Of a stretch of 64,000 bases of DNA, positions 5,101 to 49,943 are shown one piece after another (the stretch's first letter is position 1; every line of letters starts with the position of its first letter). A program made the translations under genes and the position numbers. The notes under the pieces are model-generated. The model saw nothing but the letters and a program-made list of their open reading frames with translations. It did not search any database and was not told the DNA's origin. Source of the stretch: Schleiferiaceae bacterium (GTDB taxonomy: Bacteria; Bacteroidota; Bacteroidia; Flavobacteriales; Schleiferiaceae); the NCBI GenBank assembly GCA_963715655.1, contig OY970262.1, positions 2,565,236 to 2,629,235 of the forward strand, in the 5' to 3' direction.

Positions 5101-6606
5101 TGGACGACAATTAATTCTCTTTCATTACCTCCAACTACGGGCATTAAAAAATTTCAAGGATCTAATACTGGTGATAAAGAAAATTTAGCTGGAAATCAGT
5201 TTGACGCTACTGTCGTTAATGATATTGATGTTAATTTATCCCGAAATAATGTAATTTATGTTCATCATAATGAAACTTACCTAAGTAATCCTCAAAACTT
5301 AAAACCCTCAATTAGCAGACTTATAACTAGTTATGGATTTGACTTAGAGTTTAACGGATCTTGTCCTTCTATTGGCAGTACGGTATTAAACAAAACTGAA
5401 TTGGATGGGATTATTGAAGATAGAAACGCTCTAATAGCCTCATCTAAAGGGTTTTTTGATGAAAATGTCGACTTTGGAAATCATATCAATTTATTGGAAG
5501 CAATAGGCTTTTATGAATCGATAGTATTATACGGAGAGGAAGATTTCCCTGACCCTGTTTTTAATGATGATGGTGATCAATTTGCAAGCTTATATAATAA
5601 TATTTTAGGTAATGCACCTTGGATGTCTGACGAGGCTGCCGCTGCGCTAATTATGCAATTGGGTTTTTCTGATGTTATGTTAAACAACATATTGTTGGCA
5701 CACCCACATGTTTTGAGAAATCCTAAAATTATGGACCTCTTAGAGCTATACCGTGATGGCTTTCTTGCTTATATTGATGGAATTAATAATGCAAGGGCGA
5801 ATAATTATACAGATTATGAAAATAAAATGATGTTATTATCAAATTACTCTACCGACAAATTTAAAGCAGTAGAAGAAATGGCCTCATTATTGTTTTTTGA
5901 AGATATCGGCAATGGTCTTTCTGATTTAGATGAACTTATTAGCTTTTATTCTGCTTACGATGAACCTATTTATCAATACAGAAAAGCGACATTAGAACTA
6001 GTTACTGGCGATTATAGTAGCGCTCAAAATACTCTTACTAACTTGAGTGTTCAAAATAATTTTGAAGGAGATGATGAAAAGCTGTTTAATGATTTTAGTG
6101 AATTATTAGCAATTGCGTCAAATGCCAATGGTAATGTAGCAAATTATACTCCCACAGCGAGTGAGGAAATATTTTTAGCGCGGATTGCTGAGGAGCGAGA
6201 CCACCCTTTAACCGGTTTTGCTTATAGTTTTTCACTAACTAAAAAAATGGCGACAGCGACATTGCACGATGAAATACCTAATGATAGATATGATCCCGTC
6301 TATGATTATAACGTAACTTATAATAATAAAAAGAATATAGTTGAAGAGAAAGCGTTAGTCAATCAACAATTGATAAGTTCTTTCTATGTTTATCCCAACC
6401 CAAGTAGCTCTTATTTTAATGTTGTTTCGACAGATATATTGGAAGGGGAAGCAGTGTTATATGATGTGCGGGGAGCTAAATTAAGAACAGTAGTATGCAA
6501 GAATGGCTTAGCTATTTTGCCTTTAACCTCCTTACCATCTGGCATATATGTAATAAAACTTAGTAACAGAATACAGGTGCAAACTCAAAAAGTAATCATT
6601 GATTAA
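2119..6606 (+). CDS. Very large secreted protein with right-handed beta-helix (PbH1-like) repeats and a T9SS C-terminal sorting domain
   Basis: The start is taken at the internal Met (MKKSKFLIVIVLFNCLLSSIWAQ, a signal peptide); the tracked ORF begins at 2056. Repeated NNTF/NxxF beta-helix-like motifs are present. The C-terminus (YPNPSSSYFNVVSTDILEGEAVLYDVRGAKL ... GIYVIKL) matches the Por/T9SS CTD. Confidence 0.8.
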   Translation: MKKSKFLIVIVLFNCLLSSIWAQNAPGVQWTRFDWPRIEPTTNLPQSREKSGEDWWYDHENVFINGQHTGYIAGGFSEGLNRDVNANTYKSLQDELYTCGDRVTPTCTDFEVIGRTTDCTKSLMFEYELNGNMKWCRIYYDGEFTDVQQTSDGGFIAGGYTRNSHVNGNPNAFSNGQLPNQTRLLYNPINSSSNQFLTKNPNVAWNTGSSRVGIVKTDSEGKIQWMHNYGPLEIIGGVSNSIELTTMKAKWVSIVEINSDFWVVAGYEYRTSIGGPVIFGSFLLKLDSQGYVKEKMLLAPQIITVGSAFISLKDVKKGPGSNTLYVAGSFHEENVIPKSYVAKIDITGTPNILWENLFSAQTVRPDPVNPSNTPVYRNSIIHDIEVRGNGNILVPAIVNCYSGDCFSSNNSTNKAELEIHEITSGGSRSVLYNLGEVNAYDLKAGITNTSDGGFAVVSSKGQYDSNGNLILPAPNDPLILSLLPPNTPNCHEDYKAWMSDVFVAKFSSSNSLEWQKTYDSHPNERQSYPYDLKKQECVYEITEDQATGDLVISGNTSHNFDDAYLLKLTGCQNDLNSEPITSVGAAGDEIIISNNTTWNSNKIIRGLVRVQNILIIDGATIQFADKGQSGQESGILIEPGAKLIVRNGATLTSIAGCESSTWSGIKVASNNFIFQSNNNSGQLELDGTINRVTIENADNAIFMGDPYNISANYWSSFGGIVHANGVDFKNNLRDAAFNSFGSTNTNIYYTQYDSYFKNCKFTKTEKYKAGLKSGGSVTIWACHGIDFENCVWDFTGEDYDEQSVQAAIYTVDASFNVTGNVINETASSRFINCNYGIYSFKSWDFPSRVVINNTLFDNNKKGAFLYGASGYRIQNNTFKIPSLPKDEYDLINAYGVYNRSKSSIQFFNNNTFEGIGTGGFNAGVIVSQSYSLPNVIEQNTFKDLYMANESNMDNRSNDQALGVSGLTGLEYHCNYFDNNDINIYVHHQPYPGNSWTTINSLSLPPTTGIKKFQGSNTGDKENLAGNQFDATVVNDIDVNLSRNNVIYVHHNETYLSNPQNLKPSISRLITSYGFDLEFNGSCPSIGSTVLNKTELDGIIEDRNALIASSKGFFDENVDFGNHINLLEAIGFYESIVLYGEEDFPDPVFNDDGDQFASLYNNILGNAPWMSDEAAAALIMQLGFSDVMLNNILLAHPHVLRNPKIMDLLELYRDGFLAYIDGINNARANNYTDYENKMMLLSNYSTDKFKAVEEMASLLFFEDIGNGLSDLDELISFYSAYDEPIYQYRKATLELVTGDYSSAQNTLTNLSVQNNFEGDDEKLFNDFSELLAIASNANGNVANYTPTASEEIFLARIAEERDHPLTGFAYSFSLTKKMATATLHDEIPNDRYDPVYDYNVTYNNKKNIVEEKALVNQQLISSFYVYPNPSSSYFNVVSTDILEGEAVLYDVRGAKLRTVVCKNGLAILPLTSLPSGIYVIKLSNRIQVQTQKVIID

Positions 6607-8188
6607 TTTCTCCATTAATAGAATTTCAAATAATCTAACAAAAGGGCTGCTTTTAGTAGCTCTTTTGTTATTAAATTCTAACCCTATAATTGCACAAGCT
6701 AAAGGATTTAACAAGCTTTACGGAGAAGTGGTAGTAAGCAGAAGTGTTCAGCCTTTAGGTCACACTTTCTTCACATATAGTGAAATGTCTGATGCTTTAT
6801 GGAATTACATTAAACTAATCAAGATAGATGCGGGTGGGCTGGTAATAGATACTTTTAGTTTTCGATTGGATTCTGTTCATTTAGGCATTAGCAATCACGT
6901 TTCTTTAACTTCAACTTCAGACTCTGGATTAATTTGTTCTTTTTACTATTACAAGCCTTCAGGAATAAAGGTTAACGGATTATTGAAGCTTGATAATAAT
7001 TTAAATGTTAAGTGGCATAATAACGTCTTTGAGGATACAAATAGACGAGGTTTATATCAGATTACCGAAGTATCAGACAAAGGCTTTGTTTGTACTGGTT
7101 TTGCTTATTTACCCGCCAGTAATCGCTATGAAACGTTTTTAGTAAAAACAGATAGTCTAGGTAACAAAGAATGGGAAAAACGCTATGATACTAATGTGCC
7201 TCAATACAGTCAATATGGAATATTTGTGTATGAATGCCCCAATGCAAGTGGTTATTTAATAAGCAACAGGCACGAAATTTTAACCAGTGGTCCTAATAAT
7301 GATGTGAAGCTAATTCGTACCGATATACAAGGCAATGTGCTTTGGGAAAAGCGTTGGGGAAAACCGAATGGTAGCGAAGGGTACGGCAGTGTGGGATATG
7401 TAAATGATAGTACGTTTATACTGTATTATTCTGAATTTACTGATACCATTCTCTATAACTCTACCTCAGGAGTAGTTCTACCTTTTATACGATCAACCCC
7501 TACATTTATTTTAGTTAATGATAAAAATGGAGCTCAGCTCAATCGTAATCAACCTATGAGCCCTACAGTGCAGATGGTGTCTACTAATTCATATTTTCAA
7601 AATGGAAAATTGTATGGGGCGGGTTACTTTTTTAGTTTATTTGGATCTATGCTTTTAGAGGGTGGAGGTTATCAAGGGTTTATTATTAGCGTGGATGAAA
7701 ACTTAAATTTTAATTGGTATAGACATTACAATCCTAGAGGAGCCTTAGCAATTCCTGATGATGATAGTTTTTTAATAGATATTAAACCAACGTTGGATGG
7801 CGGCATTGTAGGGGCAGGTTATTCTTTCAAATCAGATACGGCAGGTACAGGTAGGTTTGGTTTTCATGGATGGATGTTTAAAACAGATAGTATTGGATGC
7901 CTAGAAAGTACTTGCGGAGGGGATATACATTTAAAAGAAGATTTAGTTGATGAAGGAAACGGTATTCAGGTTTATCCAAACCCGAGTAGCTCTTTCTTTA
8001 ATGTTTTGTCTACTGATATTTTGGAAGGGGAGGCGATGCTTTATGATATGCGTGGAGCAGCTTTAAGTTCAGCACCTGTAAAGGACGGTAAGGCGCGACT
8101 AATCGTTGGCAATTTGCCAAAAGGAATTTATGTTATACGCGTTTTTTCCAAGTATCGTTCATTCAGTAAGCAGGTAGAGATTGATTAA
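6599..8188 (+). CDS. T9SS-secreted protein, paralog copy A (inverted duplicate of 48357-49943)
   Basis: TTG start followed by a signal peptide (KGLLLVALLLLNSNPIIAQA). The C-terminal T9SS CTD reads VYPNPSSSFFNVLSTDILEGEAMLYDMRGAAL ... GIYVIRV. The first ~270 aa and last ~130 aa are near-identical to the protein encoded at 48357-49943. Confidence 0.8.
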   Translation: MINFSINRISNNLTKGLLLVALLLLNSNPIIAQAKGFNKLYGEVVVSRSVQPLGHTFFTYSEMSDALWNYIKLIKIDAGGLVIDTFSFRLDSVHLGISNHVSLTSTSDSGLICSFYYYKPSGIKVNGLLKLDNNLNVKWHNNVFEDTNRRGLYQITEVSDKGFVCTGFAYLPASNRYETFLVKTDSLGNKEWEKRYDTNVPQYSQYGIFVYECPNASGYLISNRHEILTSGPNNDVKLIRTDIQGNVLWEKRWGKPNGSEGYGSVGYVNDSTFILYYSEFTDTILYNSTSGVVLPFIRSTPTFILVNDKNGAQLNRNQPMSPTVQMVSTNSYFQNGKLYGAGYFFSLFGSMLLEGGGYQGFIISVDENLNFNWYRHYNPRGALAIPDDDSFLIDIKPTLDGGIVGAGYSFKSDTAGTGRFGFHGWMFKTDSIGCLESTCGGDIHLKEDLVDEGNGIQVYPNPSSSFFNVLSTDILEGEAMLYDMRGAALSSAPVKDGKARLIVGNLPKGIYVIRVFSKYRSFSKQVEID

Positions 8189-8233
8189 TATGTAGTCATA
8201 TTTTGAAGGTTATAATTTAGTATAAACACTAAT

Positions 8234-8485
8234 CTATAACTTGTGTAAAGGATGTATATTAATGAACAGAGAAAGAATGCCACTTACTACCTTTTGGTAA
8301 GTGGAATTAGGGTGAACTTCATGAGGTCTTCGAGAGAGTTCTCTAAGACCTCCATAACCTTCATTTTCAAATCGAGCTATGATTTTATAAGCCGTTGGCC
8401 TAGAAATTTCAAAGCTCCGGCAGAGTTCTGTAATGATGTAATTTCCCGTTCTCCATTCGCAGATAAATTCAATTTTTTGTTCCAT
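8234..8485 (-). pseudogene. Transposase N-terminal HTH fragment (IS481/IS3-like), truncated
   Basis: 83 aa, MEQKIEFICEWRTGNYIITELCRSFEISRPTAYKIIARFENEGYGGLRELSRRPH, resembles the N-terminal HTH of a DDE transposase. No catalytic domain follows. Confidence 0.45.
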
Positions 8486-8832: not shown

Positions 8833-11106
8833 ATGTCATTAATAGACAAAGGACTTGAGCATGGGCACATCAAGTTTGATGAAGAAGAAAAATACATCAT
8901 CTATGTAGCTCCAGGCAAACGATACCGCTATACTGATCCCGAAGAACAAGTAAGAACTGAATCTTACTTATCCTTCATTTTCGAATATGGTTACAATCCT
9001 AAGCGCATGAGTCTTGAAGTAACTGTACCTAGAAGAACCCCTAGCGATTTAGCCGACATTGTCATTTTTGAAGATGATGATAAACTCACGCCCTACATAG
9101 TTGTAGAATGTAAAAAGCAAAAGATTTCAGAAGCAGAGTTCAACCAAGCCATTGAGCAAGGTTTCGGAAACGCTGTTTCGCTCAACGCACCTTTCATGCA
9201 GATTACATCAGGCATTAAAACAAATGCCTATGATGTCAAAAACTTTCCTCCACTCGAAAGGGTAAAGAACCTTATTGCAGATATTCCCCGATTTGGTCAA
9301 TCGGGTATTACCAAAGCAAAGTTTTACAAAGGCGCCATTGATGAAGACGGCAATCCTGCTAAAGACATTAAAGTTGTAGAGCAAAGCGACCTAACGAGAG
9401 TTTTTGAGCAAGCGCACCAAGCCCTTTGGGCAGGTGGAAAGCGGAATCCTTCCGAAGCATTTGATGAATTGGATAAACTCATTTTCTGTAAGATTTGGGA
9501 TGAACGTAAAGACCGCAAGCCAGGTCAGCCTTATGCCTTTCAAGAGTTTACAGGCGAACATCCGAACGAATTGCTTGAGAGAGTACAAGCCATTTACAGC
9601 GAAGGAAAAGAGAAAGACCCAGAAGTATTCAAAGAACCAATTCGCTTATCAGCTTCTGAACTTAAAACCATCGTGGGTTATTTATCAGAACTCAACCTCC
9701 ACGATACCGACCTTGACAGCAAAGGCCGAGCATTTGAAACTTTCTTAGGTTCATTCTTTCGTGGTGATTTTGGACAGTACTTTACGCCTCGAGAAGTGGT
9801 AGACTTTATTGTAAAAGTACTGCCCATTAATAACGATAGTTTAGTGCTTGATTCTTCTTGTGGAAGCGGTGGTTTCTTATTGTACGCCTTAGACAAGGTG
9901 AGAAAAAGAGCCGACCAGATGGCCGAAGAAGGCTATTTCAAAAAAGGCTCTACCAAGCACCGCGACTATTGGCACGATTTCGCAGAGCATAACCTCTACG
10001 GTATTGAAATTTCTGAAAGCATTGCCCGTACTGCCAAAATTAATATGATTATTCATGATGATGGCCACACCAATGTAATTGCTGTGGATGGCCTTAATCC
10101 TATTGAAGAAATTGCTCCAGTACCCAACGAAACCGAAAGAGAGAAAGAATGGCGTGAAAAGCTCAATGCCATTTCTATTCAGAAAGTTTCAGGAAACAAA
10201 GGATTTAAAGAAAACAACTTCGATTTCATCATCACCAATCCACCGTTTGGCTCTAGCATCAAACAAACCGAACAAGCCTATCTCAAAAACTACGGCTTGG
10301 GTATTAAAGATGTCAATTGGGTTGACCAACGATTAAAATCCAATTTCAAATTAGGAACACGCACCAGTCAAAGCACTGAAGTGCTTTTTATTGAGCAATG
10401 CCACCGTTTTTTAAAACCAGGCGGTGTGTTAGCAGTGGTTATTCCTGATGGTATTTTGACCAACTCAAGCTCGCAGTATGTGAGAGATTGGATTGAAGAA
10501 CACTACCGCATCATTTCTGTGGTTTCACTACCTCAAACAGCCTTCTCTGCCAATGGTGCAGGAGTTAAAAGCTCAGTTCTCTTCTTAATGAAGTTGGATG
10601 CCAAGCAAACCAAGAAAGTTCAAAACACCAAAGAGAAAATCCAAGATGATTTATTCTTTCAACCCCAATACGAAGCGGAGATTAAGCGGCTTGATAAAGA
10701 GAAAAAACGCATCATTAAAGAGCATGAAGGCTTTGACTACACCAGTATCAATTGGGAATTAGAAGACAATCTAAAAGCCTTAAATGGTGCATCTGCACCT
10801 GAGCAATATGACAAAGCCGCTCGCAAGCTCGCTGAGAAAAGCGAAGAATTTAAAGCATGGAAGTCTGACATTGGTCAACTCTACAATGAGCAGATCAATG
10901 AAGTAAAAGAAAATTTGCAAGACGAGTACCTCAAGCGCATTGGCGAAGAGCTGATAGACTATCCTATCTTAATGTTAATTGCTGAAAATATCGGTTATGA
11001 TACGGTTGGTCGTAAAACAGGGATCAATGAACTTGAGATAATTGCGCCAGAAATAGAAAGGTTTATTACTGACATTAAAACAGGGCAAGACCCTTTTTTC
11101 GTCTAA
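8833..11106 (+). CDS. Restriction-modification enzyme subunit: N-terminal HsdR_N-like PD-(D/E)xK nuclease domain fused to a gamma-class N6-adenine DNA methyltransferase
   Basis: The N-terminal region (DLADIVIFEDDDKLTPYIVVECKKQK) fits the D...ExK motif of the HsdR N-terminal nuclease family. A SAM-binding region (LDSSCGSGGFLLYA) and the catalytic NPPF motif (FDFIITNPPFGS) are present. 757 aa is larger than a canonical HsdM. Confidence 0.8.
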   Translation: MSLIDKGLEHGHIKFDEEEKYIIYVAPGKRYRYTDPEEQVRTESYLSFIFEYGYNPKRMSLEVTVPRRTPSDLADIVIFEDDDKLTPYIVVECKKQKISEAEFNQAIEQGFGNAVSLNAPFMQITSGIKTNAYDVKNFPPLERVKNLIADIPRFGQSGITKAKFYKGAIDEDGNPAKDIKVVEQSDLTRVFEQAHQALWAGGKRNPSEAFDELDKLIFCKIWDERKDRKPGQPYAFQEFTGEHPNELLERVQAIYSEGKEKDPEVFKEPIRLSASELKTIVGYLSELNLHDTDLDSKGRAFETFLGSFFRGDFGQYFTPREVVDFIVKVLPINNDSLVLDSSCGSGGFLLYALDKVRKRADQMAEEGYFKKGSTKHRDYWHDFAEHNLYGIEISESIARTAKINMIIHDDGHTNVIAVDGLNPIEEIAPVPNETEREKEWREKLNAISIQKVSGNKGFKENNFDFIITNPPFGSSIKQTEQAYLKNYGLGIKDVNWVDQRLKSNFKLGTRTSQSTEVLFIEQCHRFLKPGGVLAVVIPDGILTNSSSQYVRDWIEEHYRIISVVSLPQTAFSANGAGVKSSVLFLMKLDAKQTKKVQNTKEKIQDDLFFQPQYEAEIKRLDKEKKRIIKEHEGFDYTSINWELEDNLKALNGASAPEQYDKAARKLAEKSEEFKAWKSDIGQLYNEQINEVKENLQDEYLKRIGEELIDYPILMLIAENIGYDTVGRKTGINELEIIAPEIERFITDIKTGQDPFFV

Positions 11107-11138
11107 GCCCCGATTTAGATGAAGACAGGTTCTTCATT

Positions 11139-12584
11139 TTGAATCGGGGCGAAATCGAATTTAGATTAGACCCACTCTATTTTAGAGCACTAAAGCAAAT
11201 TGAAACTGATATTGTTGAAAAGGCAAAATATCCAGTTCACCCCGTAAGACAAGTTTGTGCTATAAAACGCGGAAAGTTTACGCATAGACCGAGAAATGAT
11301 CCAAAATTGTATGATGGCGAATATCCATTTATTCAGACAGGAGACATTGTTCGTTCAGCGACAACAGGAAATGAAATAACCTACAAGCAAACTCTTAATG
11401 AGTTGGGTAGAATGACCAGTAGATTGGCCTATCCTCCTCAGTTATTAATGACCATTGCTGCCAATATTGGGGTTACAGCCATTCTTGATTACGCATGTTG
11501 CTATCCTGATAGTATTGTCGCTATTGACCCAAAGAATCAGGGATTAAACACTTCAATAGAATACTTAGATGTTTATTTTACTTTGATTCAACCTTATGTT
11601 GAACAGCTTGCCCCTTTTGCAGCACAACGAAATTTAAACAATCAGCAACTCGGAGATATTCCTCTAATTCTGCCCGATAATACCATTCAGCAAAAAGCAA
11701 TTGATAGTTACAAAAAGGCCGTTGAAGACAAGAAAGCCAAAGAAAACCAAGCCCAAGAGCTACTCGCTTCTATTGATGACTACTTACTTACAGAGTTAAG
11801 TATCGTCCTTCCGCCTGAGCCAGAAAATGCAATTGAGAATAGGAAGTTTAGGACTAATTTTTCAAGTGTCACAGGTAACCGCTTCGACCCAAAAAGATAC
11901 AGCACAAGAACGGAGCAACTCTATGATTCAATTCACAATTCTATTTTTCCATTAAGAAGCTTAAAATCCCTTCTTATTCACACCGCATCAGGCCAATGGG
12001 GTGATGAGCCTCATGAGTCTTTTAATGAAAAGCTTTACAAGCAATGCCTTGTTATCAGATCTACAGAATTTGACAATCGATTCAATTTAAAACTTGATAA
12101 TAGCAGGGCAAAATATCGCCTTATAACTAAAACGAAACTTGATAAACTTGATCTGCAACCTTATGACATCCTAGTTGAAAAATCTGGTGGCAGTCCAGAT
12201 CAACCAGTTGGTAGAGCAGCAATTCTTCTACCTGAAATATTTGAAAACAATACGATTTGCTACAGCAACTTCATTCACAAATTCCGTGCTGATCAGTCTA
12301 TTATAGATCCTGAATACTTGTTCGCTTATCTAAAGGTGATTCATAATATCAAGTTGACAGATACTATGCAAAGTCAAACCAATGGAATTAGAAACTTGAT
12401 TATGAGAGAATATTGGAATCAAGAGATTCCTATTCCATCACCCGAAAAACAAAAAGAAATAGCTACTCAGTTTTTCAACCTTAAAAATGAAGCACAAGAA
12501 TTATTCAAAAATGCTGAGTTAGACTTTCAGCAAGCAAAAAAAGAAATTGAGCACTTAATCTTAAATCCTGCAAACAATGACTAA
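11139..12584 (+). CDS. hsdS: Restriction-modification specificity (S) subunit, HsdS-like with two target-recognition domains
   Basis: Two variable TRD-like halves are separated by conserved coiled-coil spacer repeats (LPDNTIQQKAIDSYKKAVEDKKAKENQAQELL and IPIPSPEKQKEIATQFFNLKNEAQELF). TTG start 33 nt after the upstream stop. Confidence 0.8.
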   Translation: MNRGEIEFRLDPLYFRALKQIETDIVEKAKYPVHPVRQVCAIKRGKFTHRPRNDPKLYDGEYPFIQTGDIVRSATTGNEITYKQTLNELGRMTSRLAYPPQLLMTIAANIGVTAILDYACCYPDSIVAIDPKNQGLNTSIEYLDVYFTLIQPYVEQLAPFAAQRNLNNQQLGDIPLILPDNTIQQKAIDSYKKAVEDKKAKENQAQELLASIDDYLLTELSIVLPPEPENAIENRKFRTNFSSVTGNRFDPKRYSTRTEQLYDSIHNSIFPLRSLKSLLIHTASGQWGDEPHESFNEKLYKQCLVIRSTEFDNRFNLKLDNSRAKYRLITKTKLDKLDLQPYDILVEKSGGSPDQPVGRAAILLPEIFENNTICYSNFIHKFRADQSIIDPEYLFAYLKVIHNIKLTDTMQSQTNGIRNLIMREYWNQEIPIPSPEKQKEIATQFFNLKNEAQELFKNAELDFQQAKKEIEHLILNPANND

Positions 12585-13011
12585 AACGATAATAGCCCTT
12601 TGGGGCACAGCCAATATCGGTAAATCTATGACACTAGCTCGCCTTGGCAGACAGTTACAAGCTAATGGTGCTACCACAAATGCTAACATTACAGGTGGAG
12701 ATTATCGAGCCATATTTCAGTATCAAAACAAAACTATTGGCCTTCAAACCTATGGTGATACAGAGCATTTGGTAAACCAAGGATTAACTGAGTTTCAAAA
12801 TCAGCAATGTGACATAATTGCCATTGCTTCTAAATCTTATGGAGCTACCGTTGATACTATTGGAGCATTTGCAGGTCAAAATGGCTATCGCATTATTTGG
12901 TCAAGTCCCTATGAAGTGAGAGATGGCTCCATCACTACTGATACAATTAAGAACTATGCTGCAAGCCACTTGCTTAGAATGGTTGATGATGTAATTGCAG
13001 GTATTCTATAG
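12577..13011 (+). CDS. Small P-loop NTPase/kinase-like protein (144 aa), uncharacterised
   Basis: Walker A-like motif WGTANIGKSMTL near the N-terminus and a hydrophobic-D stretch (CDIIAIAS) resembling Walker B. The ATG overlaps the hsdS stop by 8 nt (AATGACTAA), suggesting translational coupling. Confidence 0.55.
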   Translation: MTKTIIALWGTANIGKSMTLARLGRQLQANGATTNANITGGDYRAIFQYQNKTIGLQTYGDTEHLVNQGLTEFQNQQCDIIAIASKSYGATVDTIGAFAGQNGYRIIWSSPYEVRDGSITTDTIKNYAASHLLRMVDDVIAGIL

Positions 13012-13013
13012 AA

Positions 13014-13856
13014 TTGAATATAATGGGAGAGAAAACTATCACATACCAAAGGCAACTCATAGGCGTAGAAATAAAGCTTGGTTTCTTATACGTTCCGGCA
13101 CAAGCCAGAGACTTGTTGCCCAATGAAAACGGCAAAGTGCAAGTGCTACTCGAAGGAGAAAACAAACCCAAAGCAAAGAGCTACAATGCAGACTATAACC
13201 GCATTTTTGGCCTTACTCCTTTCTTCAAAAAGCACAAACTAGAAAAGGGCAATATTCTCACCGTACAGGTCAGCAATGATCTTATCAAGGTAGAGCTTGC
13301 CAAAACCACCATCATAGAAGATCAGGAAGAAAATGAGCAAGCAGATGTCATTGATATTTCAGGTTTATCATCCCAAGCCAAAGGAAACATTGCCGAAGAC
13401 CGAGTAAAAGAAATCATCTTACTCAATAGTCAAGGCTTGCTCAATGTCTATCGTCCCGTTATCGATACCAGGGGCATTGATATGATTGTATTGAAAGAAG
13501 GTTTGTTTCATTCCATTTACCTACAAGTAAAATCACGTTTTCAGGTAAAAAGCAATGGTCAATTAATACTCACCATCAGCAAGAATACTTTTAAACCACA
13601 TCACGCTCATTATTTAGTAGGCATTAGTTACGAACCTGATGTTGCAGAAATAGGTGAACATATACTCTTTATGCCTTCCAAAAAGGTAATAGAAATGGCC
13701 ACCATAGTAAAGAACAAAGGCAAAGAATATTACCGCATCAATGTTTCTTACAACAGCGCCAAAAGTGGTAAATACAAAAAGTACTTTATGAGCAAGCAAG
13801 ACTTTGTAGAAAGCCTACTCGAAAAATTTGAAGCCATGAGCGAAATGATAAAATAA
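13014..13856 (+). CDS. Putative restriction-type nuclease: N-terminal B3/EcoRII-N-like DNA-binding pseudobarrel plus C-terminal PD-(D/E)xK-like core
   Basis: The N-terminus (IGVEIKLGFLYVPAQARDLLPNENGKVQVLL ... YNRIFGLTPFFKKHKLEKGNILTVQV) has the typical B3/EcoRII-N pattern. The C-terminal half (VYRPVIDTRGIDMIVLKEG ... IYLQVKS) resembles D..(E/Q)xK nuclease strands. The start lies 3 nt after the previous stop. Confidence 0.45.
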   Translation: MNIMGEKTITYQRQLIGVEIKLGFLYVPAQARDLLPNENGKVQVLLEGENKPKAKSYNADYNRIFGLTPFFKKHKLEKGNILTVQVSNDLIKVELAKTTIIEDQEENEQADVIDISGLSSQAKGNIAEDRVKEIILLNSQGLLNVYRPVIDTRGIDMIVLKEGLFHSIYLQVKSRFQVKSNGQLILTISKNTFKPHHAHYLVGISYEPDVAEIGEHILFMPSKKVIEMATIVKNKGKEYYRINVSYNSAKSGKYKKYFMSKQDFVESLLEKFEAMSEMIK

Positions 13857-23585: not shown

Positions 23586-23794
23586 AGTGGTAATTTAATG
23601 CAGCTAATGTATTAAACGATGCAAATCAATGTTTTTGAGTACTTTTGACCTTTATAGAATTTAGAAACGTAGGATTTAGGTGGCAATTTTTGTGGCATTC
23701 CATATTTAGAAAATGCAACGTATTGTCAAGTAAACGTTTACAAAATATTTTTCGGTTCCGTCCGGACCGCTATTTATTTAGTAAATAAATGCAA

Positions 23795-23831
23795 AAGCCT
23801 GAAAGTCAAACGATTTTCAGGCTTTTTTTTG
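23795..23831 (+). terminator. Hairpin plus poly-T terminator-like structure in an orphan position (no upstream plus-strand gene)
   Basis: agcctgaaa-gtcaaacga-ttttcaggct followed by tttttttt. It is immediately preceded by the perfect palindromes atttatttagtaaataaat and gtccggac. Confidence 0.4.
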
Positions 23832-23978
23832 TTCCATTAGGTAAAAAGAAGTAATAAAATACACCTCTTTTAAAGCAATTCAGAAGCATTGATTTTAAGT
23901 AATACCGAAATGAAATTTGCTAGATTAAATTGTAAAATATCCAAAAATGTGGTATCCTGCAACTTGATTTAATAAACT

Positions 23979-41351: not shown

Positions 41352-41406
41352 AAATTGAGTGTTTGCGTGTTTCTAATTTGTGCTTCAAGAATAAAAAAAT
41401 GTTATG

Positions 41407-41440: not shown

Positions 41441-41474
41441 GTAAGACTATTAAATAAATGAAAATAGGTACGAA

Positions 41475-42284
41475 ATGAATAAAGAGGTTAGAGAAGGTTT
41501 TATACCAGATTGGGCTATGGGAACACAGGGTGCTATGATTAATATTGTCAAAAATATTAATTCTGAAACAGCAACAACTTGGCCAACCATACGTGGTTTT
41601 AAATTTAGCCCCTATCGTTATAATGATTTTATGTTGCTCGTCTTACAGGATGAACCAAATCCTCAAGGAGCGATGATTGGATCAGGGGCTTTTTTAACAT
41701 TGCCCGAAAGTATTACTACATCTGTTCCGGTAAACATCGAAACATTTAGAAATATATATCAAACTGTTGTAGCTGCATTTAATTTGACTACTAGTGATTT
41801 TATTTATTTTATACCTATTAAAGAGGGTGGAAATTTGAAGGAAAACTATTCAAAATTTTCTGAGGAAGAAGTCTTCTTTTGGGAATATCAACATAGTTTC
41901 AATATTAAAAACTATCGCGATATTGATAACCATACAACACCTTCACCCACACCAAAACCCACCGCAGCACCAATTACAATCGTGAATAATCATTATCACC
42001 TAAGCGATAATTCAAGAATTAATAATAATTCAACTGACAATTCTGTAAATAAGCAGACAATCAGTTTTAAAAGTTCAGTTTATGAAGATTTAAACAAAAG
42101 GGCTGAAGAAATAAATAGCATATCAGAGCAGAAGGAAGTTAAAAAAGCGATATCGGAAATGGAGCAAAGTGAAAACATTCAATCCTTCAAATCTGCATAT
42201 AATAGCTTTATAGCGAAAGCTGCTAATCACATGACACTGTTTTCTCCATTTATTCCTGCACTTACAGAGATGTTAATCAAATAA
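41475..42284 (+). CDS. Hypothetical protein (269 aa) with S/T/P-rich linker; partner gene of the SIR2-like protein
   Basis: No recognisable motif. Contains a low-complexity linker HTTPSPTPKPTAAP. AT-rich codon usage differs from neighbouring genes. Confidence 0.45.
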   Translation: MNKEVREGFIPDWAMGTQGAMINIVKNINSETATTWPTIRGFKFSPYRYNDFMLLVLQDEPNPQGAMIGSGAFLTLPESITTSVPVNIETFRNIYQTVVAAFNLTTSDFIYFIPIKEGGNLKENYSKFSEEEVFFWEYQHSFNIKNYRDIDNHTTPSPTPKPTAAPITIVNNHYHLSDNSRINNNSTDNSVNKQTISFKSSVYEDLNKRAEEINSISEQKEVKKAISEMEQSENIQSFKSAYNSFIAKAANHMTLFSPFIPALTEMLIK

Positions 42285-42334
42285 AGTTTCATTCCAATTA
42301 CTTGAAGGTTACCATTTACAACAATAATTGAAGC

Positions 42335-43411
42335 ATGCAGGAGGACACACACAGAATTCTTTACATCTTAGGAGCTGGTGCTAGTGCTAATGCGATACCT
42401 CCTGTAAATGGACTTAACCACGCCATAATTGTTTGGGGCAATGCAATGAAGGAATATACTAGCGTATTGGAATTACCTCAAAAGCACAGTCTCAGCAGAC
42501 TCTCTAAACTGTTTTTAAGATTTGGACAAGAAGCAAAGACATCTTTTTCTGTTGATACACTTGCTAGAAAATATTACCTTAGAAAAGACTTCAAGACATT
42601 AGGAAAGTTAAAAACAGTGATAGCATTGACGATCCAATTAGAAAGTTTGAGTAATCCTAAATTGTTGAAACCTTTTCTCCCGTATCGAGAGCAGGTACTC
42701 ACTGATTTACGATATGAAGCCTTTTTGGCCAGCCTTATTGACGAGCATACTAAGGCTATACCTGATTCGATTAGAATCATTAGTTGGAACTATGATTTAC
42801 AACTAACTCAAGCTTATCTTCAAATACTTAACAAGTTTAACGCTGATATGAGTAAGTCATATTACGAGGAGGAGGTTGATGGATATACACATCTAACAAA
42901 ATTAAATGGATCTATCTACAACGATAGCACCTTCAGTGATTCCTATTCAGACCTCAGTTTAATTGAACATCATAAGCATAAGTTGTCTAAAAATGCACTT
43001 TTAGTGCATGGATTAATAGAGTTTATTGAGGACAGAAAAAGCAATTGGTATAAATTGACAAATATTGGTAGTATTAAATTTGCGTGGGAAGAGAATCGTG
43101 ATTTTTCAGCGCTCGAAGCTTTTAGTCCAACAATTATTGTTGTGATTGGATATAGTTTCCCAACGTACAATAGAGATGTTGACAAGAATATTCTTAATAC
43201 ATTAAATGGCACAAAGGAAAGCAAAGTGTATGTCCAATGTAATTTTAGAACTAGTAAAGGTAAGTTGGTTAGAAATTTTGATGGAGTAAAATCAAATTTA
43301 TTAGGATTAGGGGTATCTGCTGAGAAAATTGTGGAAGTAGCAGAGTCTAATGAATTTAGAATACCCTTTGAATTGAATAAGCCATTAGACCCGTTCGGAT
43401 TTGTGATTTAA
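42335..43411 (+). CDS. SIR2-like (SIR2_2/DHS-like NAD-binding) domain protein, candidate defence NADase
   Basis: N-terminal ILYILGAGASANAIP (GAGxS), a central WNYDLQLTQAY (compare the TNYD motif of ThsA-type SIR2), and a later IVVIGYSFPTYNRD (compare VGFSFTD). The position equivalent to the catalytic His appears to be Asn (KLNGS). Confidence 0.5.
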   Translation: MQEDTHRILYILGAGASANAIPPVNGLNHAIIVWGNAMKEYTSVLELPQKHSLSRLSKLFLRFGQEAKTSFSVDTLARKYYLRKDFKTLGKLKTVIALTIQLESLSNPKLLKPFLPYREQVLTDLRYEAFLASLIDEHTKAIPDSIRIISWNYDLQLTQAYLQILNKFNADMSKSYYEEEVDGYTHLTKLNGSIYNDSTFSDSYSDLSLIEHHKHKLSKNALLVHGLIEFIEDRKSNWYKLTNIGSIKFAWEENRDFSALEAFSPTIIVVIGYSFPTYNRDVDKNILNTLNGTKESKVYVQCNFRTSKGKLVRNFDGVKSNLLGLGVSAEKIVEVAESNEFRIPFELNKPLDPFGFVI

Positions 43412-43446
43412 ATTCAATGAATGTAATTGCCATAATAGTATCAATT

Positions 43447-43618
43447 CTCACCCGCTAGCGCGGATTTGTAATCCGTGCTTTTAAAATTCTTTAATTTAGA
43501 TTAAAAATGATTTGACACTATTGGCAGTTTTAGCCCTCACTAGCGCAGGTTTATAATTTGTTCTTCACAAAAGTTAAAAAAATAGTGGCCATAGATTGCA
43601 AATCTGCGCCAGCTGACG
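43447..43618. repeat. Three more copies of the short interspersed repeat on the right flank of the cassette (two inverted, one direct)
   Basis: ctcacccgctagcgcggatttgtaatccg (43447-43475), ggcagttttagccctcactagcgcaggtttataatttg (43523-43560) and ccatagattgcaaatctgcgccagctgacg (43589-43618). Confidence 0.6.
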
Positions 43619-43671
43619 ACAAAGAATGAGATAATTGTACTAACTTTATAAAGCTTTACTTTAGCATTATT

Positions 43672-43911
43672 ATGGAAACAACAAATTTGAGAAGAAGAAT
43701 CTTAGCCTTTGTGCAGCACGCTGACGTAGAGCACCTTAAACGCTTAGAAGCGTTTATAATAAGAGAACCATCTGATCTATCCATTTTAACTGAGAAACAA
43801 AAAGTTGAGCTTGATGAGCAGGAGGCATTTTATGCATCAGGAAATGGTGAGGTGTACGCATGGAATGATATTAAGCAGGAACTGATTGATGAGCATGGCC
43901 TATCAACTTGA
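43672..43911 (+). CDS. Type II antitoxin (addiction-module component)
   Basis: 79 aa acidic protein whose 3' end overlaps the following RelE/ParE-like gene by 26 nt. Confidence 0.55.
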   Translation: METTNLRRRILAFVQHADVEHLKRLEAFIIREPSDLSILTEKQKVELDEQEAFYASGNGEVYAWNDIKQELIDEHGLST

Positions 43912-44182
43912 ACTTAGGGAAAATGCCCGTACAGGTGTAATTAATGGATTTAAATGGTATGAGACAAAAAGCGAAGGGCTTGGAGCAAGGTTTGTCCAGC
44001 AAGTAGAAGATGTAATTGAGTACATAGGTAAAGATCCCTTGCACTTTCAGGTTAGGTATAAAGATTATAGAGAAGCACTTTTAAAAAACTTTCCCTACGT
44101 TGTAATATATCAAGTTATAGGAAACCTTGTCATCGTTTCATCGGTATATCCGGCACGCGCTAATCCTGAAAAAAAGATATAG
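43886..44182 (+). CDS. RelE/ParE-family type II toxin
   Basis: 98 aa with ... FPYVVIYQVIGNLVIVSSVYPARANPEKK, a typical ParE/RelE C-terminus. Confidence 0.7.
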   Translation: MMSMAYQLELRENARTGVINGFKWYETKSEGLGARFVQQVEDVIEYIGKDPLHFQVRYKDYREALLKNFPYVVIYQVIGNLVIVSSVYPARANPEKKI

Positions 44183-44728
44183 GTTGAGAAAGGCTCTCTA
44201 GCTCACCCGCTTTTTTCAAAACCTTCCCACTCTAAATATACATGTAATAAATACTTGTAAACCAAATACTTGAATTTTGCTAATCTTTACCTAATACATA
44301 CCAAGTAACCTGAGTTCGATTAAAACCAAAATAAATTAAGCTGATAATCAATAGTTCCAAAACAACAAGCTAGCCCCTAAATTCCTACCGCTAAAGCAGC
44401 ACTTACGGCCTAATGAGGACTTTAGCTACGCGTGTAGTTAAATCAAATTCTTTTGAATCTTATTTAACCCTTTACGACAGTGCCCAAGAAGGCTCATTAG
44501 TCAATAATAAATCTTTAAGCTGTTTGCCTTTTAACCTGTAATAGAAAAAACAGAATAAAATTTTCTAAACTATTATTTGTCGCTGAATAGTAGTACAAAC
44601 CAGCTTTAAACTATTGTTGTGAAAAACTATAGATTGAAATAGCTTTGCCAGTGCAAAAGCATAGTATTTGCTAACCACGTAATACCTTGCCGTTGCACGT
44701 TTATAAGACTTCATAAAAATTCCACCGT

Positions 44729-45316
44729 TTGAAAAAAATACTCTTTAGCCTAACGCTTTGTCTTGCCAATCTTTACGCTTTTGCCCAAAATGAAATAGAA
44801 TGGTCGCCCAACGTGCAATTAACGTTAGAAGATTTTCAATCACCTTCTACGGAAATAAACCCTGCCTTTAATAGCGTTTCATTGAGTGGTGGGTCAAGCC
44901 TATCCTTTGCAATAGCCATGAGTTCTTTAGAATTTATGCTTACTAAAAACTTTAATAGCAAAGTAAGCTGTGTTTTTTATAAAAACACGGCTATGGTTGT
45001 TGCACCTGATACCGCCAATGCTATGCAACTCGTTAATTTTGAAATGTACTGTTTTAACTTAAGTGAACTTTACGCCCGTAAAATGAGAAGGAAGCTACAC
45101 GAAGAAAAGCGTGTTTTCTCAAACTTGAGTTATTTTGAACCCATTTACAATAGCTACCAACTATCACTAAACAGCCGAAAAACAGCTACTCAAAAACTAA
45201 CCGAATTTGGAGCAAAGGCTGATTTGTTAGCACAGGAAAACGGCAGGGTATTAGCGGAAATTGAAACGCTGGCTGATTTTTGCAAAACGTGCACACCACC
45301 AAAAAAGAAGAAGTAA
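44729..45316 (+). CDS. Hypothetical secreted protein / lipoprotein
   Basis: TTG start and signal peptide KKILFSLTLCLANLYAFAQ. No other motif. Confidence 0.45.
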   Translation: MKKILFSLTLCLANLYAFAQNEIEWSPNVQLTLEDFQSPSTEINPAFNSVSLSGGSSLSFAIAMSSLEFMLTKNFNSKVSCVFYKNTAMVVAPDTANAMQLVNFEMYCFNLSELYARKMRRKLHEEKRVFSNLSYFEPIYNSYQLSLNSRKTATQKLTEFGAKADLLAQENGRVLAEIETLADFCKTCTPPKKKK

Positions 45317-45448
45317 TCCACCAGTTGCGCTTACATTTTTATTTCCTTAAGCGGATTAGTTAAAATAATACTGCTCGGAGTAACCATTCAGAACAATTCG
45401 ATTTTTAAAACCTTGTTAGTTTGTTGCTTTTTAAAAAGCAGTGGATTT

Positions 45449-46057
45449 ATGAAGCAAGCTAGTTACTTACAGAATTTCCGTTCTTTTATTGAAGAAATTT
45501 CGCCTATTAGCGAAAAGGATTGGGACTTTTTCTCCACTAAATTAGTGGAGCGCGTTATTCCTAAAAAAACCATTTTTCTTAAATCAGGTGAAATTGAAAA
45601 CCACATTAGCTTTATAGAAGCAGGTTGGATACGTTTATTTATTCCTCATGAAGACCCGGAAAAAGAAATAACGTTTGGCTTTAGTGGTAAAAGTGAGTTT
45701 ATAAGTGCTTATGATTCCTTCTTAACCCAGCGCCCAAGTTTATATCAATTAGAAACACTTACTGACACTACGCTTTGGAGTATTTCCTATCAACATTTAC
45801 AACAAGTTTACAAGCATACAGAAATTGGCAATCACATCGGTCGCCTAACGGCAGAACGCCTCTTTTTACTAAAATCAAAACGTGAACAGTCTCTTTTACA
45901 GGATACCGCCCAACAGCGCTATTTAAATTTACAGAAAAACCGGCCTGCACTTTTTGATAACGTTCCACTTAAATATTTAGCCTCTTACATAGGTGTAACA
46001 CCACAAGCACTCAGCCGAATACGCAAAAGAGTTACTGAACCCAAGTTCATTGTTTAG
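45449..46057 (+). CDS. Crp/Fnr-family transcriptional regulator (cNMP-binding plus HTH)
   Basis: Start taken at the internal Met (tracked ORF begins 45413). A beta-roll region (IFLKSGEIENHISFIEAGWIRLF) and a C-terminal HTH (LKYLASYIGVTPQALSRIRKR). Confidence 0.8.
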   Translation: MKQASYLQNFRSFIEEISPISEKDWDFFSTKLVERVIPKKTIFLKSGEIENHISFIEAGWIRLFIPHEDPEKEITFGFSGKSEFISAYDSFLTQRPSLYQLETLTDTTLWSISYQHLQQVYKHTEIGNHIGRLTAERLFLLKSKREQSLLQDTAQQRYLNLQKNRPALFDNVPLKYLASYIGVTPQALSRIRKRVTEPKFIV

Positions 46058-46102
46058 CACCTCGTTGTACAGCACCTTTGCAGCCTCTTATAAAATAGGC
46101 AG

Positions 46103-46858
46103 ATGGCAATTTTCATTTTTTTAGTAGTGCTCTGGTACGGAGGACTTTTTTTTCAAACATTTTTCTTGCACCGTTACGCAGCTCATCAAACGTTTACCAT
46201 GAGTAAGCGGAAGGAAAAAGTAGTGTTTATCTTAACCTGGATTTTTCAGGGTAGCAGCTATTTAAGTGCCTACGGGTATGGTATTATGCACCGTTTGCAC
46301 CATGCTTACGCAGATACTGAAAACGACCCGCATTCACCAAAATATGATGATAGTCTGTTTTCTATGATGTGGCGCACCAAAGGCATTTATCAAGATATTA
46401 ATAACGATAAAATTGAAGTAGAACCAAAATTTAAAAAGAACGTACCGCAATGGAAAAGCTTTGACCGCTTTGCCAGCTCTATGTACTCGCGTGTTTTTTG
46501 GGGCGTTTTATACGGAGTGTTTTTTATGGTTTTTGCAACGGCTTGGTGGCAATTTTTATTTTTACCCTTAGCCTTTTTAATGGCTCCCGTACACGGTGTA
46601 ATTATTAATTGGTATGCTCACATTTATGGGTATTCCAACTTTAAAGTAACTGATACTTCCAAAAATTTACTACCGTTTGATTTTTTAATGATGGGCGAGT
46701 CTTACCATAATAATCACCATAAACATAGTACCAGAGCTAATTTTGGTGGTGTGCGTTGGCATGAAATTGATCCTACCTATCAAATAATGCGGGTGTTAAA
46801 TCTACTACGCATTATTAATTTGAAACCGCAAACGGTAAGGGTGAGCAGGGAGCGATAA
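46103..46858 (+). CDS. Membrane fatty-acid (acyl-CoA/acyl-lipid) desaturase family protein
   Basis: Histidine boxes HRLHHAY and HNNHHKH with hydrophobic TM stretches. Confidence 0.8.
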   Translation: MAIFIFLVVLWYGGLFFQTFFLHRYAAHQTFTMSKRKEKVVFILTWIFQGSSYLSAYGYGIMHRLHHAYADTENDPHSPKYDDSLFSMMWRTKGIYQDINNDKIEVEPKFKKNVPQWKSFDRFASSMYSRVFWGVLYGVFFMVFATAWWQFLFLPLAFLMAPVHGVIINWYAHIYGYSNFKVTDTSKNLLPFDFLMMGESYHNNHHKHSTRANFGGVRWHEIDPTYQIMRVLNLLRIINLKPQTVRVSRER

Positions 46859-48133: not shown

Positions 48134-48356
48134 TAAAATGTCTTTTTAAAACGACAAAAGTACTATAATTTTGTTTAGTACAATAGACGTTAATAAAAGC
48201 ATATCATTTTCAATGAGACCCTTTTATTGTTAATACAATGAAATTTAGGTTAGTTATAGGTTGTAAATCACAATCTTCTCTTTACAGTGCTAACAAGATT
48301 GAGAGCGAGTTAAGTCTTGCTAAATGGCTTTCATAGTCTTGAAACAAGGTTGAGTA

Positions 48357-49943
48357 TCAGTAAACCTCTACCTGCTTACTGAATGAACGATACTCGGAAA
48401 GAACGCGTATAACATAAATTCCTTTTGGCAAATTGCCAACGATTAATCGCGCTTTACCGTCCTTTACAGGTGCTGAGCTTAAAGCTGCTCCACGCATATC
48501 ATAAAGCATCGCCTCCCCTTCCAAAATATCTGTAGACAAAACATTAAAGAAAGAGCTACTCGGATTTGGATAAACCTGAAAACCGTTTCCTTCATCAACT
48601 AAATCTTCTTTTAAATGTATATCCCCTCCGCAAGTACTTTCTAGGCATCCAATACTATCTGTTTTAAACATCCATCCATGAAAACCAAACCTACCAGTAC
48701 CAGTAGTATCATCTTTAAACGTATAACCAGCGGCCACAATACCACCATCCAACGTATGTTTAATATCAATTAACCAGCTGTCGTTAGCTTTATTCGTTTG
48801 TCCTTCAATAGAATTATAATGTCTGTACCATTTAAATTTTAAATTTTCGTCTACACAGATTATGTAACTGTAATAACCATCTATTGGTATGGAACTTAAA
48901 CTCTTCAAATTCAAAAAATAACCGACACCGTAAAAATTACCATCTTTAAAGAAAGAGTTTGTTGATGTTAAGCTAATGGTGGGAATAGAAATTGAGCTAA
49001 CGGATTTAATATTTCCGCTTTTATCATCAACTTTTGCAAAGATGGGAGAAGCACGTACTTCAGGTATTAGGACACCTTGATAATTTTCATGTATAGTATC
49101 AACATACTCGGAATAATACAGTATAAACGTACTATCATTTACATATCCCACACTGCCGTACCCTTCGCTGCCGTTGTGTTTTCCACAACGCTTTTCCCAA
49201 AGCACATTGCCTTGTATATCGGTACGAATTAGCTTCACATCATTATTAGGACCACTGGTTAAAATTTCGTGCCTGTTGCTTATTAAATAACCACTTGCAT
49301 TGGGGCATTCATACACAAATATTCCATATTGACTGTATTGAGGCACATTAGTATCATAGCGCTTTTCCCATTCTTTGTTACCTAGGCTATCTGTTTTTAC
49401 TAAAAACGTTTCATAGCGATTACTGGCGGGTAAATAAGCAAAACCAGTGCATACAAAGCCTTTGTCTGATACTTCGGTAATCTGATATAAACCTCTTCTA
49501 TTTGTATCCTCAAAGACGTTATTATGCCACTTAACATTTAAATTATTATCAAGCTTCAATAATCCGTTAACCTTTATTCCTGAAGGCTTGTAATAGTAAA
49601 AAGAACAAATTAATCCAGAGTCTGAAGTTGAAGTTAAAGAAACGTGATTGCTAATGCCTAAATGAACAGAATCCAATCGAAAACTAAAAGTATCTATTAC
49701 CAGCCCACCCGCGTCTATCTTGATTAGTTTAATGTAATTCCATAAAGCATCAGACATTTCACTATATGTGAAGAAAGTGTGACCTAAAGGCTGAACACTT
49801 CTGCTTACTACCACTTCTCCGTAAAGCTTGTTAAATCCTTTAGCTTGTGCAATTATGGGGTTAGTATATGGTAACAAAAGAGTTACTAAAAGCAACCCTT
49901 TTGTTAGATTATTTGAAATTCTATTAATGGAGAAATTAATCAA
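48357..49943 (-). CDS. T9SS-secreted protein, paralog copy B (inverted duplicate of 6599-8188)
   Basis: The N-terminal ~270 aa (MINFSINRISNNLTKGLLLV ... NVLWEKR) and the C-terminal T9SS CTD (... VYPNPSSSFFNVLSTDILEGEAMLYDMRGAAL ... GIYVIRV) are near-identical to 6599-8188. The central ~130 aa are divergent. Confidence 0.8.
   Translation of the reverse strand: MINFSINRISNNLTKGLLLVTLLLPYTNPIIAQAKGFNKLYGEVVVSRSVQPLGHTFFTYSEMSDALWNYIKLIKIDAGGLVIDTFSFRLDSVHLGISNHVSLTSTSDSGLICSFYYYKPSGIKVNGLLKLDNNLNVKWHNNVFEDTNRRGLYQITEVSDKGFVCTGFAYLPASNRYETFLVKTDSLGNKEWEKRYDTNVPQYSQYGIFVYECPNASGYLISNRHEILTSGPNNDVKLIRTDIQGNVLWEKRCGKHNGSEGYGSVGYVNDSTFILYYSEYVDTIHENYQGVLIPEVRASPIFAKVDDKSGNIKSVSSISIPTISLTSTNSFFKDGNFYGVGYFLNLKSLSSIPIDGYYSYIICVDENLKFKWYRHYNSIEGQTNKANDSWLIDIKHTLDGGIVAAGYTFKDDTTGTGRFGFHGWMFKTDSIGCLESTCGGDIHLKEDLVDEGNGFQVYPNPSSSFFNVLSTDILEGEAMLYDMRGAALSSAPVKDGKARLIVGNLPKGIYVIRVLSEYRSFSKQVEVY

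Follow-up and report, generated by a model that had tools for sequence, protein, structure and literature searches.

The window analyzed here, a 64,000-nt stretch of the genome of a Schleiferiaceae bacterium (contig OY970262.1, positions 2,565,236–2,629,235), contains two paralogous genes, copy A and copy B, which are inverted relative to each other, 40 kb apart. Both are predicted to encode a seven-bladed beta-propeller that is secreted by the type IX secretion system (T9SS) and carries a T9SS-type C-terminal domain (CTD). Copy A is located directly behind a giant T9SS cargo gene, and its TTG start codon overlaps the stop codon of the giant gene by 8 nt; the giant gene is translationally coupled to copy A, and the two form a cargo operon in which copy A comes second. 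Copy B is solitary, with a spacer of 219 nt upstream. The exact copy A protein is present in the database (P0001), on one 3,855,810-bp contig; the database version of copy B (P0002) is 512 aa in length, as it was called from an internal TTG codon. The coordinates of the genes, of their homology blocks and of the neighboring features are collected in Table 1.

Table 1. Coordinates of the A/B gene pair, its homology blocks and other features of the window
Feature	Coordinates	Strand	Description
Copy A	6599..8188	+	529 aa; putative signal peptide, predicted seven-bladed beta-propeller and T9SS type-A CTD
Copy B	48357..49943	-	528-aa paralog; inverted relative to copy A and convergent with it
5′ homology arm of A	6581..7449	+	869 nt, 97%; putative signal peptide and blades 1 to mid-5
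5′ homology arm of B	49093..49961	-	upstream end (about 49944-49967) is a putative remnant of a giant-gene-type CTD (its last codons)
Diverged center of A	7450..7849	+	codons about 284-420; from mid-blade 5 through all of blade 6 and most of blade 7
Diverged center of B	48696..49092	-	about 58-60% nt identity to the center of A
3′ homology arm of A	7850..8190	+	~340 nt, about 97%; last strand of blade 7, linker and CTD
3′ homology arm of B	48355..48695	-	partner of 7850-8190 in A
Giant T9SS cargo gene	2119..6606	+	ATG start; 1495 aa; P0183
Tyrosine recombinase (integrase)	1..1102	+	Phage_integrase and Phage_int_SAM_5; phrog_1 integrase
Truncated transposase N-terminus	8234..8485	-	83 aa; 45 nt after the stop codon of A; phrog_8463, residues 1-68 of a 380-position profile
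Attachment (att)-like site	23751..23848	+	tRNA-Asp 3′ end (23751-23772), then terminator hairpin; proposed right end of an integrative element
Cyclic nucleotide monophosphate (cNMP)-binding regulator	45413..46057	+	63% over 218 aa to a gene of the relative L093; orientation marker, right end of the bracketed segment
Metalloprotease	50163..50918	-	membrane protein, conserved; last gene of the conserved valyl-tRNA synthetase (ValRS) block

A scan of the whole window for inverted repeats of at least 40 nt identified two repeats, and both of them come from the A/B gene pair. The first is formed by the two 5′ arms (869 nt, 97%); the second connects 7667-8190 with 48355-48878 (524 nt, 87%). In a global alignment of the two copies, 45-50 of every 50 nt match in the 6626-7425 region; the number of matches drops to 16-39 per 50-nt window at 7426-7825 and is back at 48-50 at 7876-8175, while the sequences outside the pair match at random level. 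The two genes are mosaics of three blocks with 97%, 58-60% and 97% nt identity. The transitions are sharp, and the inner boundaries are located at about 7432-7450 and about 7850 in copy A. Perfect identity begins at 6593, which is 6 nt ahead of the TTG start at 6599; a weaker match (14/18) reaches back to about 6575, and on the other side the similarity ends 2 nt past the stop codon.

At the protein level, residues 1-283 of the two copies differ at 8 positions; 4 of these are in the putative signal peptide and none is between residues 28 and 252. The center, which corresponds to ~400 nt and about 2.5 propeller blades, is diverged over about 135 residues and contains one 1-codon indel; the identity is 55% over the 160-residue stretch that spans it. 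The last 104 residues differ at 5 positions. The original prediction, made from the sequence alone, described the first ~270 and the last ~130 residues as identical, including about 10 nt upstream, and placed a divergent region of ~130 aa between them. The shared termini and the divergent center are both real; however, the termini are about 97% identical rather than identical, and the upstream identity is perfect for 6 nt and weaker beyond. As the 97% applies to the nucleotide sequences of the arms, the termini are not merely similar as proteins.

The repeat was also reflected in data of another type. One short-read contig of the same strain (L092, from Logan ERR12040027) corresponds to 1538-6622 of the window with 100% identity, and its end lies exactly 31 nt beyond the last A/B mismatch (6592). 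Logan assembly graphs are built with a k-mer size of 31. Because L092 stops where such a graph would branch, its end indicates, independently of the source contig, that the reads themselves contain the repeat and that assembly probably did not create it.

The fold was predicted with AlphaFold (AF2) for copy A, using 32 homologs; the mean predicted local distance difference test score (pLDDT) of the model is 79 and the predicted template modeling score (pTM) is 0.72. The model contains one N-terminal helix, 28 beta-strands that form seven four-stranded blades, one linker and the CTD strands, and its best counterparts in the PDB are beta-propellers, among them CylK and an archaeal YVTN propeller. 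By eye, the N-termini of both copies show a putative Sec signal peptide, a hydrophobic LLLVALLLL stretch followed by IIAQA, which was modeled as a helix (residues 11-25). The CTD of copy A scores 32.7 bits against Por_Secre_tail (PF18962; curated cut-off 27) and 37 bits against TIGR04183 (cut-off 23). Apart from 5 substitutions the CTD of copy B is the same, and it is also over the curated cut-off. None of PorK/L/M/N, SprA and PorU/V is annotated among the genes of the window.

Like the two copies, the giant protein ends with a CTD over the curated cut-off of these families (33.7 bits). It had been described as closely related to the A/B CTD, with exchange of CTDs or modules as the suggested cause. 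The close relationship holds for the first ~30 residues, the first half of the CTD, where one 89-nt patch is 82% identical (6388-6476 versus 7970-8058); beyond it the relationship is distant, as a wider C-terminal alignment of 174 residues, including the rest of the CTD, is 36% identical. This single patch hints at a possible module exchange with the giant protein and does not demonstrate it.

To date the blocks, substitution rates were calculated from Nei-Gojobori counts. The synonymous (dS) and nonsynonymous (dN) rates are 0.082 and 0.015 in the 5′ arm, and 0.095 and 0.021 in the 3′ arm; the arms together carry 35 copy-specific differences. In the center, the proportion of synonymous differences (pS) is 0.72 and saturated (dS about 2.4), and that of nonsynonymous differences (pN) is 0.31 (dN 0.41). 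Owing to the saturated pS and a dN well below dS, the center appears to be old and under purifying selection, and not a hypermutated or diversifying patch. Within the 5′ arm, the differences occur in clusters (variance/mean 2.38, p=0.0003). Runs of perfect identity measure 216, 176 and 143 nt in the 5′ arm and 114 nt in the 3′ arm, and runs of these lengths are adequate substrates for recombination. A diversity-generating retroelement was also considered and ruled out, as the centers differ at ~40% of positions, contain an indel and are saturated at synonymous sites; no reverse transcriptase is annotated in the window.

The centers are closer to each other (55% over the 160-residue stretch) than to the nearest outside homolog, P0190, with which they share 37% and 33% identity. 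In an exhaustive HMMER search of 1.84 billion representative proteins, the best non-self match of the center of B is 38-39% identical, and the same search found no closer donor for either center. The base composition of both centers is normal. Homologs in other genomes reach only 31-39% identity, and the A/B pair itself was found in one genome only (3.86 Mb); a metagenome scan with copy A returned a single relative, with 31% identity. The gene context of P0190 was uninformative about which locus is ancestral.

The sequences bordering the two copies bear on the direction of transfer. The giant gene ends with ...AAAGTAATCATTGATTAA and copy A with ...GTAGAGATTGATTAA; on the basis of these two ends, CTDs of this type appear to end natively in ‘I-D-stop’. 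No CTD gene lies upstream of copy B, where the preceding sequence reads ...AATAATCATTGATTAA. Because a remnant of the last codons of the giant gene seems to precede B, at least the 5′ arm of B was probably derived from an A-type locus, that is, giant gene plus A. One TAnnTTTG motif is present upstream of copy B, at 50091. Scans for sigma-70 promoters and terminators gave results at chance level, and such scans are ill-suited to this phylum.

From left to right, the window contains the tyrosine recombinase gene, one transposase-like helix-turn-helix (HTH) gene, the giant gene, copy A and the truncated transposase gene. Type I methylase and specificity genes, one DGQHR-like gene, one insertion sequence (IS) of the IS3 type and a 1.6-kb array of 22/66/505-nt repeats follow, and then PriCT_2/DUF3987 and BT4734-like primase-type genes, one SSF symporter gene and a DUF3686 ATPase-PspA-YbjN cluster. 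Next are HTH and PLD genes, cyanophycin metabolism genes and a 3-kb insert with a toxin-antitoxin-like pair; the segment is completed by the cNMP regulator, desaturase and AAA_14 genes and copy B. To the right of B lies a core block of metalloprotease-ValRS-DUF1573-aminotransferase-MurB-...-YidC-CTP synthase. No Rfam match and no tRNA gene was found in the window. Open reading frames of equal length (875 and 251 aa) on both sides had suggested a larger symmetric duplication, which was rejected, as the proteins are unrelated.

The segment between A and B was compared to that of a congener (Logan assemblies SRR23274235; contigs L082, L090 and L084; 80-84% nt identity). The congener matches the window at 23925-34474 (L082), 36464-46858 (L090) and 50165-55689 (L084), with the same gene order; it is without the 8.2-23.9 kb and 41.4-44.7 kb regions, the AAA_14 gene, copy A and copy B. 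The entire ~40 kb had been called an accessory segment. This is correct for a part of it, since 8.2-23.8 kb, 41.4-44.7 kb and the AAA_14 gene look strain-specific; however, about half of the segment (the L082 and L090 matches) is conserved, and because the congener keeps this 23.9-46.9 kb block, the bracketed DNA is only partly accessory.

On the ValRS side, synteny stops at 50161-50165, beside copy B, in all relatives examined. In the congener, the metalloprotease gene is followed by a small ORF and an IS30 fragment; a relative with 69% identity has an M1 peptidase gene at this place, and another with 64% identity (L093) has a 1560-aa fn3/MAM T9SS cargo gene on the same strand and then a convergent cNMP-regulator gene. 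As what follows the metalloprotease gene differs in each relative, copy B appears to occupy a variable cargo slot after the ValRS-metalloprotease block. In a ValRS scan of genome contigs, the relatives among the matches listed are at most 62% identical, with synteny only on the far side of ValRS; the closest named match of a flanking gene is from an Owenweeksia sp. metagenome-assembled genome (52% identity). Two of the congener contigs, L084 and L090, end in the same 12-mer, AGTATACAAATA; L090 ends after the desaturase gene and L084 in an IS30-like gene past the metalloprotease gene. The common 12-mer is compatible with the same adjacency broken by a repeat, but is no proof of it; it suggests that both contigs end at copies of a multicopy element bounded by terminal inverted repeats.

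The left part of the window probably belongs to an integrative element. The recombinase frame is open to the window start, with no in-frame stop codon in 1-43, and lies 5.5 kb from A. Over the C-terminal 69 aa, the recombinase shares 62% identity with an integrase remnant of the congener, where a tRNA-Asp(GTC) gene and this 69-residue remnant are located upstream of the SSF gene on L082. The 3′ end of this tRNA-Asp(GTC) gene recurs in the window at 23751-23772 (13/13 exact, 21/23 overall), and the adjacent 89 nt, including the terminator hairpin, are 80% identical to L082 3236-3323, the tRNA-distal flank, in opposite orientation. Synteny with the congener begins at 23925. The integrase, the att-like site, the primase genes and this synteny break point to one element, which would begin beyond the left edge of the window, end at about 23.8 kb and carry the giant gene and copy A among its cargo. 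A k-mer search for att direct repeats at the island edges found none; the att-like site emerged only from the comparison with the congener. In L082 3236-3759, the same tRNA fragment and hairpin are present in opposite orientation, 350 nt from the intact tRNA-Asp gene. At the att-like junction, the window and the congener appear to be distinguished by at least one separate inversion or other rearrangement, unrelated to the A/B arms.

Several other features lie within or beside the proposed element. The truncated transposase, whose gene has no further part in the window, marks a rearrangement scar at the inner junction of A. The 411-aa protein beside the att-like site has no match in Pfam, NCBIfam, PHROG or PDB and is no evident recombinase. 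Between the IS3 element and the PriCT_2/DUF3987 primase-type gene, 17032-18611 consists of three direct repeat units of ~505-568 nt with 66-nt subrepeats of 22-nt units (ATAGGTGTGTTT...); its GC skew reaches +0.45, and it has no Rfam match. It is possibly an iteron-type array and as such a candidate replication origin of the element. The 8833-15388 region encodes a type I-like methylase (HSDR_N_2 domain) and a specificity subunit without a recognizable restriction subunit, followed by an AAA_22 fragment, two proteins without assignment and a weak DGQHR-domain match; it may be an incomplete or atypical defense module.

For the origin of the mosaic we favor RecA-type homologous recombination in the form of gene conversion between the paralogs, with a probability of roughly 60%. 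Gene conversion had been proposed in the original prediction, and it gains support from the nucleotide-level mosaic, with an arm dS of 0.08-0.09 against a center pS of 0.72. Non-reciprocal, RecA-type conversion between the A and B loci would have given the arms a recent common ancestor (dS about 0.09), with the central ~135 codons keeping their ancient divergence. The diverged center would block conversion tracts, so that each arm would be homogenized on its own; the center was probably also retained because both variants are useful. Both center variants would be kept under purifying selection, and the cell would make two functionally distinct propellers with a common scaffold and secretion tag. 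The inverted layout would then be a by-product and not a dedicated switch. The clustering of the 5′-arm differences is as expected from patchy conversion tracts.

Similar processes have been described in other bacteria. In Helicobacter pylori, gene conversion between the chromosomal babA and babB loci makes chimeras and moves the middle region under another 5′ control (PMC4552749). In layout the babA/babB(/babC) genes resemble A and B, with identical ends and a divergent middle, and conversion runs between their loci. Different from A and B, which are T9SS cargo, the Bab proteins are autotransporter-like outer-membrane proteins; the Bab system has phase-variable CT repeats, whereas none were seen at A/B, and its conversion has been recorded across many strains and in the course of infection; A/B is known from one genome. 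The tufA/tufB conversion of Salmonella is RecA-dependent and processive, and is stopped by large heterologies (PMC5485169). Like A and B, the tuf genes are two copies in inverse orientation on one chromosome; however, they are homogenized over the full length and lie 762 kb apart, whereas A and B keep a diverged center and are 40 kb apart. Conversion at A/B would be a known process in a poorly sampled Bacteroidota lineage, with no new mechanism. If conversion did occur, the locus would be a clean case, away from the much-studied pathogens, of a T9SS cargo family that keeps two functional variants through intragenomic recombination, with a shared scaffold and secretion tag; a mobile element probably carries one copy, and the other has its place in a cargo slot of the chromosome.

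Compared to gene conversion, a recent whole-gene inverted duplication (dS about 0.09), after which homologous recombination replaced the central ~400 nt of one copy with a diverged allele of another strain or species, is the less likely but still serious explanation, and we give it tentative weight. The duplicate could have come with the integrative element that carries A. Such a history explains the equal dS of the arms (0.082 and 0.095) better than conversion does; both inner boundaries are sharp, the unit comprises precisely one gene together with about 25 nt of the gene before it, and copy A is probably on a mobile element. However, no donor-like sequence was found for either center (best 38-39%), the composition of neither center is odd, and the clustered differences of the 5′ arm point to several conversion events and not to uniform decay.

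Several points weigh against gene conversion itself. With the same dS in both arms, whole-gene duplication plus center replacement is simpler than two conversion histories. The gene was found in no second strain or close relative, so neither the direction of transfer nor non-reciprocity is demonstrable. The left end of the proposed integrative element is outside the window; in the relative, moreover, the tRNA fragment with its hairpin lies the other way round with respect to the SSF gene, which indicates that other rearrangements happened and makes the element model insecure. Finally, the functional difference proposed for the two centers is read from dN/dS alone.

Because the copies are inverted, recombination between them had been predicted to flip the segment that they enclose. 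In principle this is supported, as the copies are convergent and share perfect runs of 216, 176, 143 and 114 nt. With a crossover in the 5′ arm, 41.6 kb would be inverted and the centers exchanged between the operon-coupled and the solitary site; with one in the 3′ arm, the inversion would measure about 40.2 kb and leave each center at its site. A low-rate ~40-kb inversion could arise from such reciprocal crossovers. Recombination between the tuf genes reportedly can also give inversions (Hughes, 2000, J Mol Biol, is said to describe them). A flip of this kind between A and B would also divide the integrative element, provided that the element model holds.

The sequence comparisons available gave no sign of a past inversion. 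The orientation of the cNMP-regulator gene and its distance to the metalloprotease gene are about the same as in L093, and its identity to the L093 gene (63%) is about equal to that of the flanking orthologs. The comparative check of orientation has thus been made for the right end of the segment, with one marker and one distant relative, and this placement suggests that the assembled orientation is probably ancestral. GC skew in the window tracks the coding strand; at 4-fold sites, the 24-48 kb block has a skew of -0.10 +/- 0.03 and the core block one of +0.03 +/- 0.05, a difference of about 2.3 sigma from few genes. The locus is a site where a 40-kb inversion is mechanistically possible, which is relevant to assembly and strain comparison. 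It would be an improbable reading that the arms serve as a recombination switch, in which a ~41-kb flip by crossover in the 5′ arm chooses the center that follows the giant gene and the one at the solitary site, changes the secreted repertoire, and splits and locks the element. Interest in the locus would rise only with inversion isomers that have a regulatory effect.

Duplication associated with inversion, in which a single event flipped the ~40 kb and made the second, inverted copy at the other breakpoint, is very improbable. The inverted copies do sit exactly at the two ends of the segment, a truncated transposase scar lies 45 nt from the end of A, and the mechanism is cited for H. pylori in PMC4671568, with inverted copies of one gene at the segment ends as in A and B. 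However, the right end is oriented to the metalloprotease gene as in L093 (cNMP gene), so the segment is apparently not inverted relative to this relative; the proposed element runs unbroken from integrase to att-like site in the present orientation; and similarity between the copies is uneven, with a saturated center that demands a second event anyway.

A programmed, shufflon-like switch, in which a site-specific recombinase such as 44-1102 exchanges the centers between the operon and the solitary locus, is more improbable again. Shufflon-like variation had been offered as the other source of the pattern, and there are reasons to consider it: a tyrosine recombinase is encoded 5.5 kb upstream of A, A is operon-coupled and B is not, and in Bacteroides, of the same phylum, shufflons and invertible loci of surface or secreted proteins recombine in the 5′ parts of paralogous genes beside a recombinase gene (bioRxiv 10.1101/521070). 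The Bacteroides systems, however, have 7-bp cores or 18-bp inverted repeats, a single promoter and alternative genes within a few kb, whereas A and B are complete genes with long homologous arms and a 40-kb interval. The arms (869 and ~340 nt) carry scattered differences of 2-3% and no short conserved core, so that short crossover sites are absent from the block borders. Each copy is a full-length ORF that has a start codon and a putative signal peptide of its own, and silent cassettes and a convincingly dedicated invertase are lacking. The window contains no further short inverted repeats linking the A/B genes to the recombinase region, and no convincing invertible-promoter repeats between the recombinase and the giant gene. 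The only nearby recombinase (44-1102) resembles the integrase of an integrative element, being akin to the tRNA-Asp-side integrase remnant of the relative, with an att-like fragment at 23751-23772; a 40-kb flip would split this element.

An assembly or polishing artefact, in which the arms of two more diverged genes became nearly identical by collapse or cross-polishing, is scarcely credible: repeats are prone to cross-polishing and the source is a single 3.86-Mb contig, but the independent short-read contig L092 is 100% identical and breaks exactly at the first 31-mer common to A and B, and the arms retain 35 copy-specific differences.

Other features were observed in the segment between the two copies. 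The 41475-44700 insert, which is absent from the congener contig L090, encodes 269-aa and 358-aa proteins without a family match and the toxin-antitoxin-like pair at 43672-44182. The conserved cluster at 25458-34969 encodes one 1640-aa DUF3686/DUF7902/AAA ATPase, two proteins without assignment, PspA/IM30 and one YbjN/CesT-like protein, and gave no PADLOC match. Four matched proteins of the cluster share 89-96% aa identity with the congener, whose contig ends ahead of the YbjN gene. In the spacer after the DUF3686 ATPase gene, one 61-nt direct repeat is present at 30479-30539 and 30610-30670, with 90% identity between the units; it is kept at 83-90% in the congener (L082 11768-11891), where the spacer contains two extra small genes.

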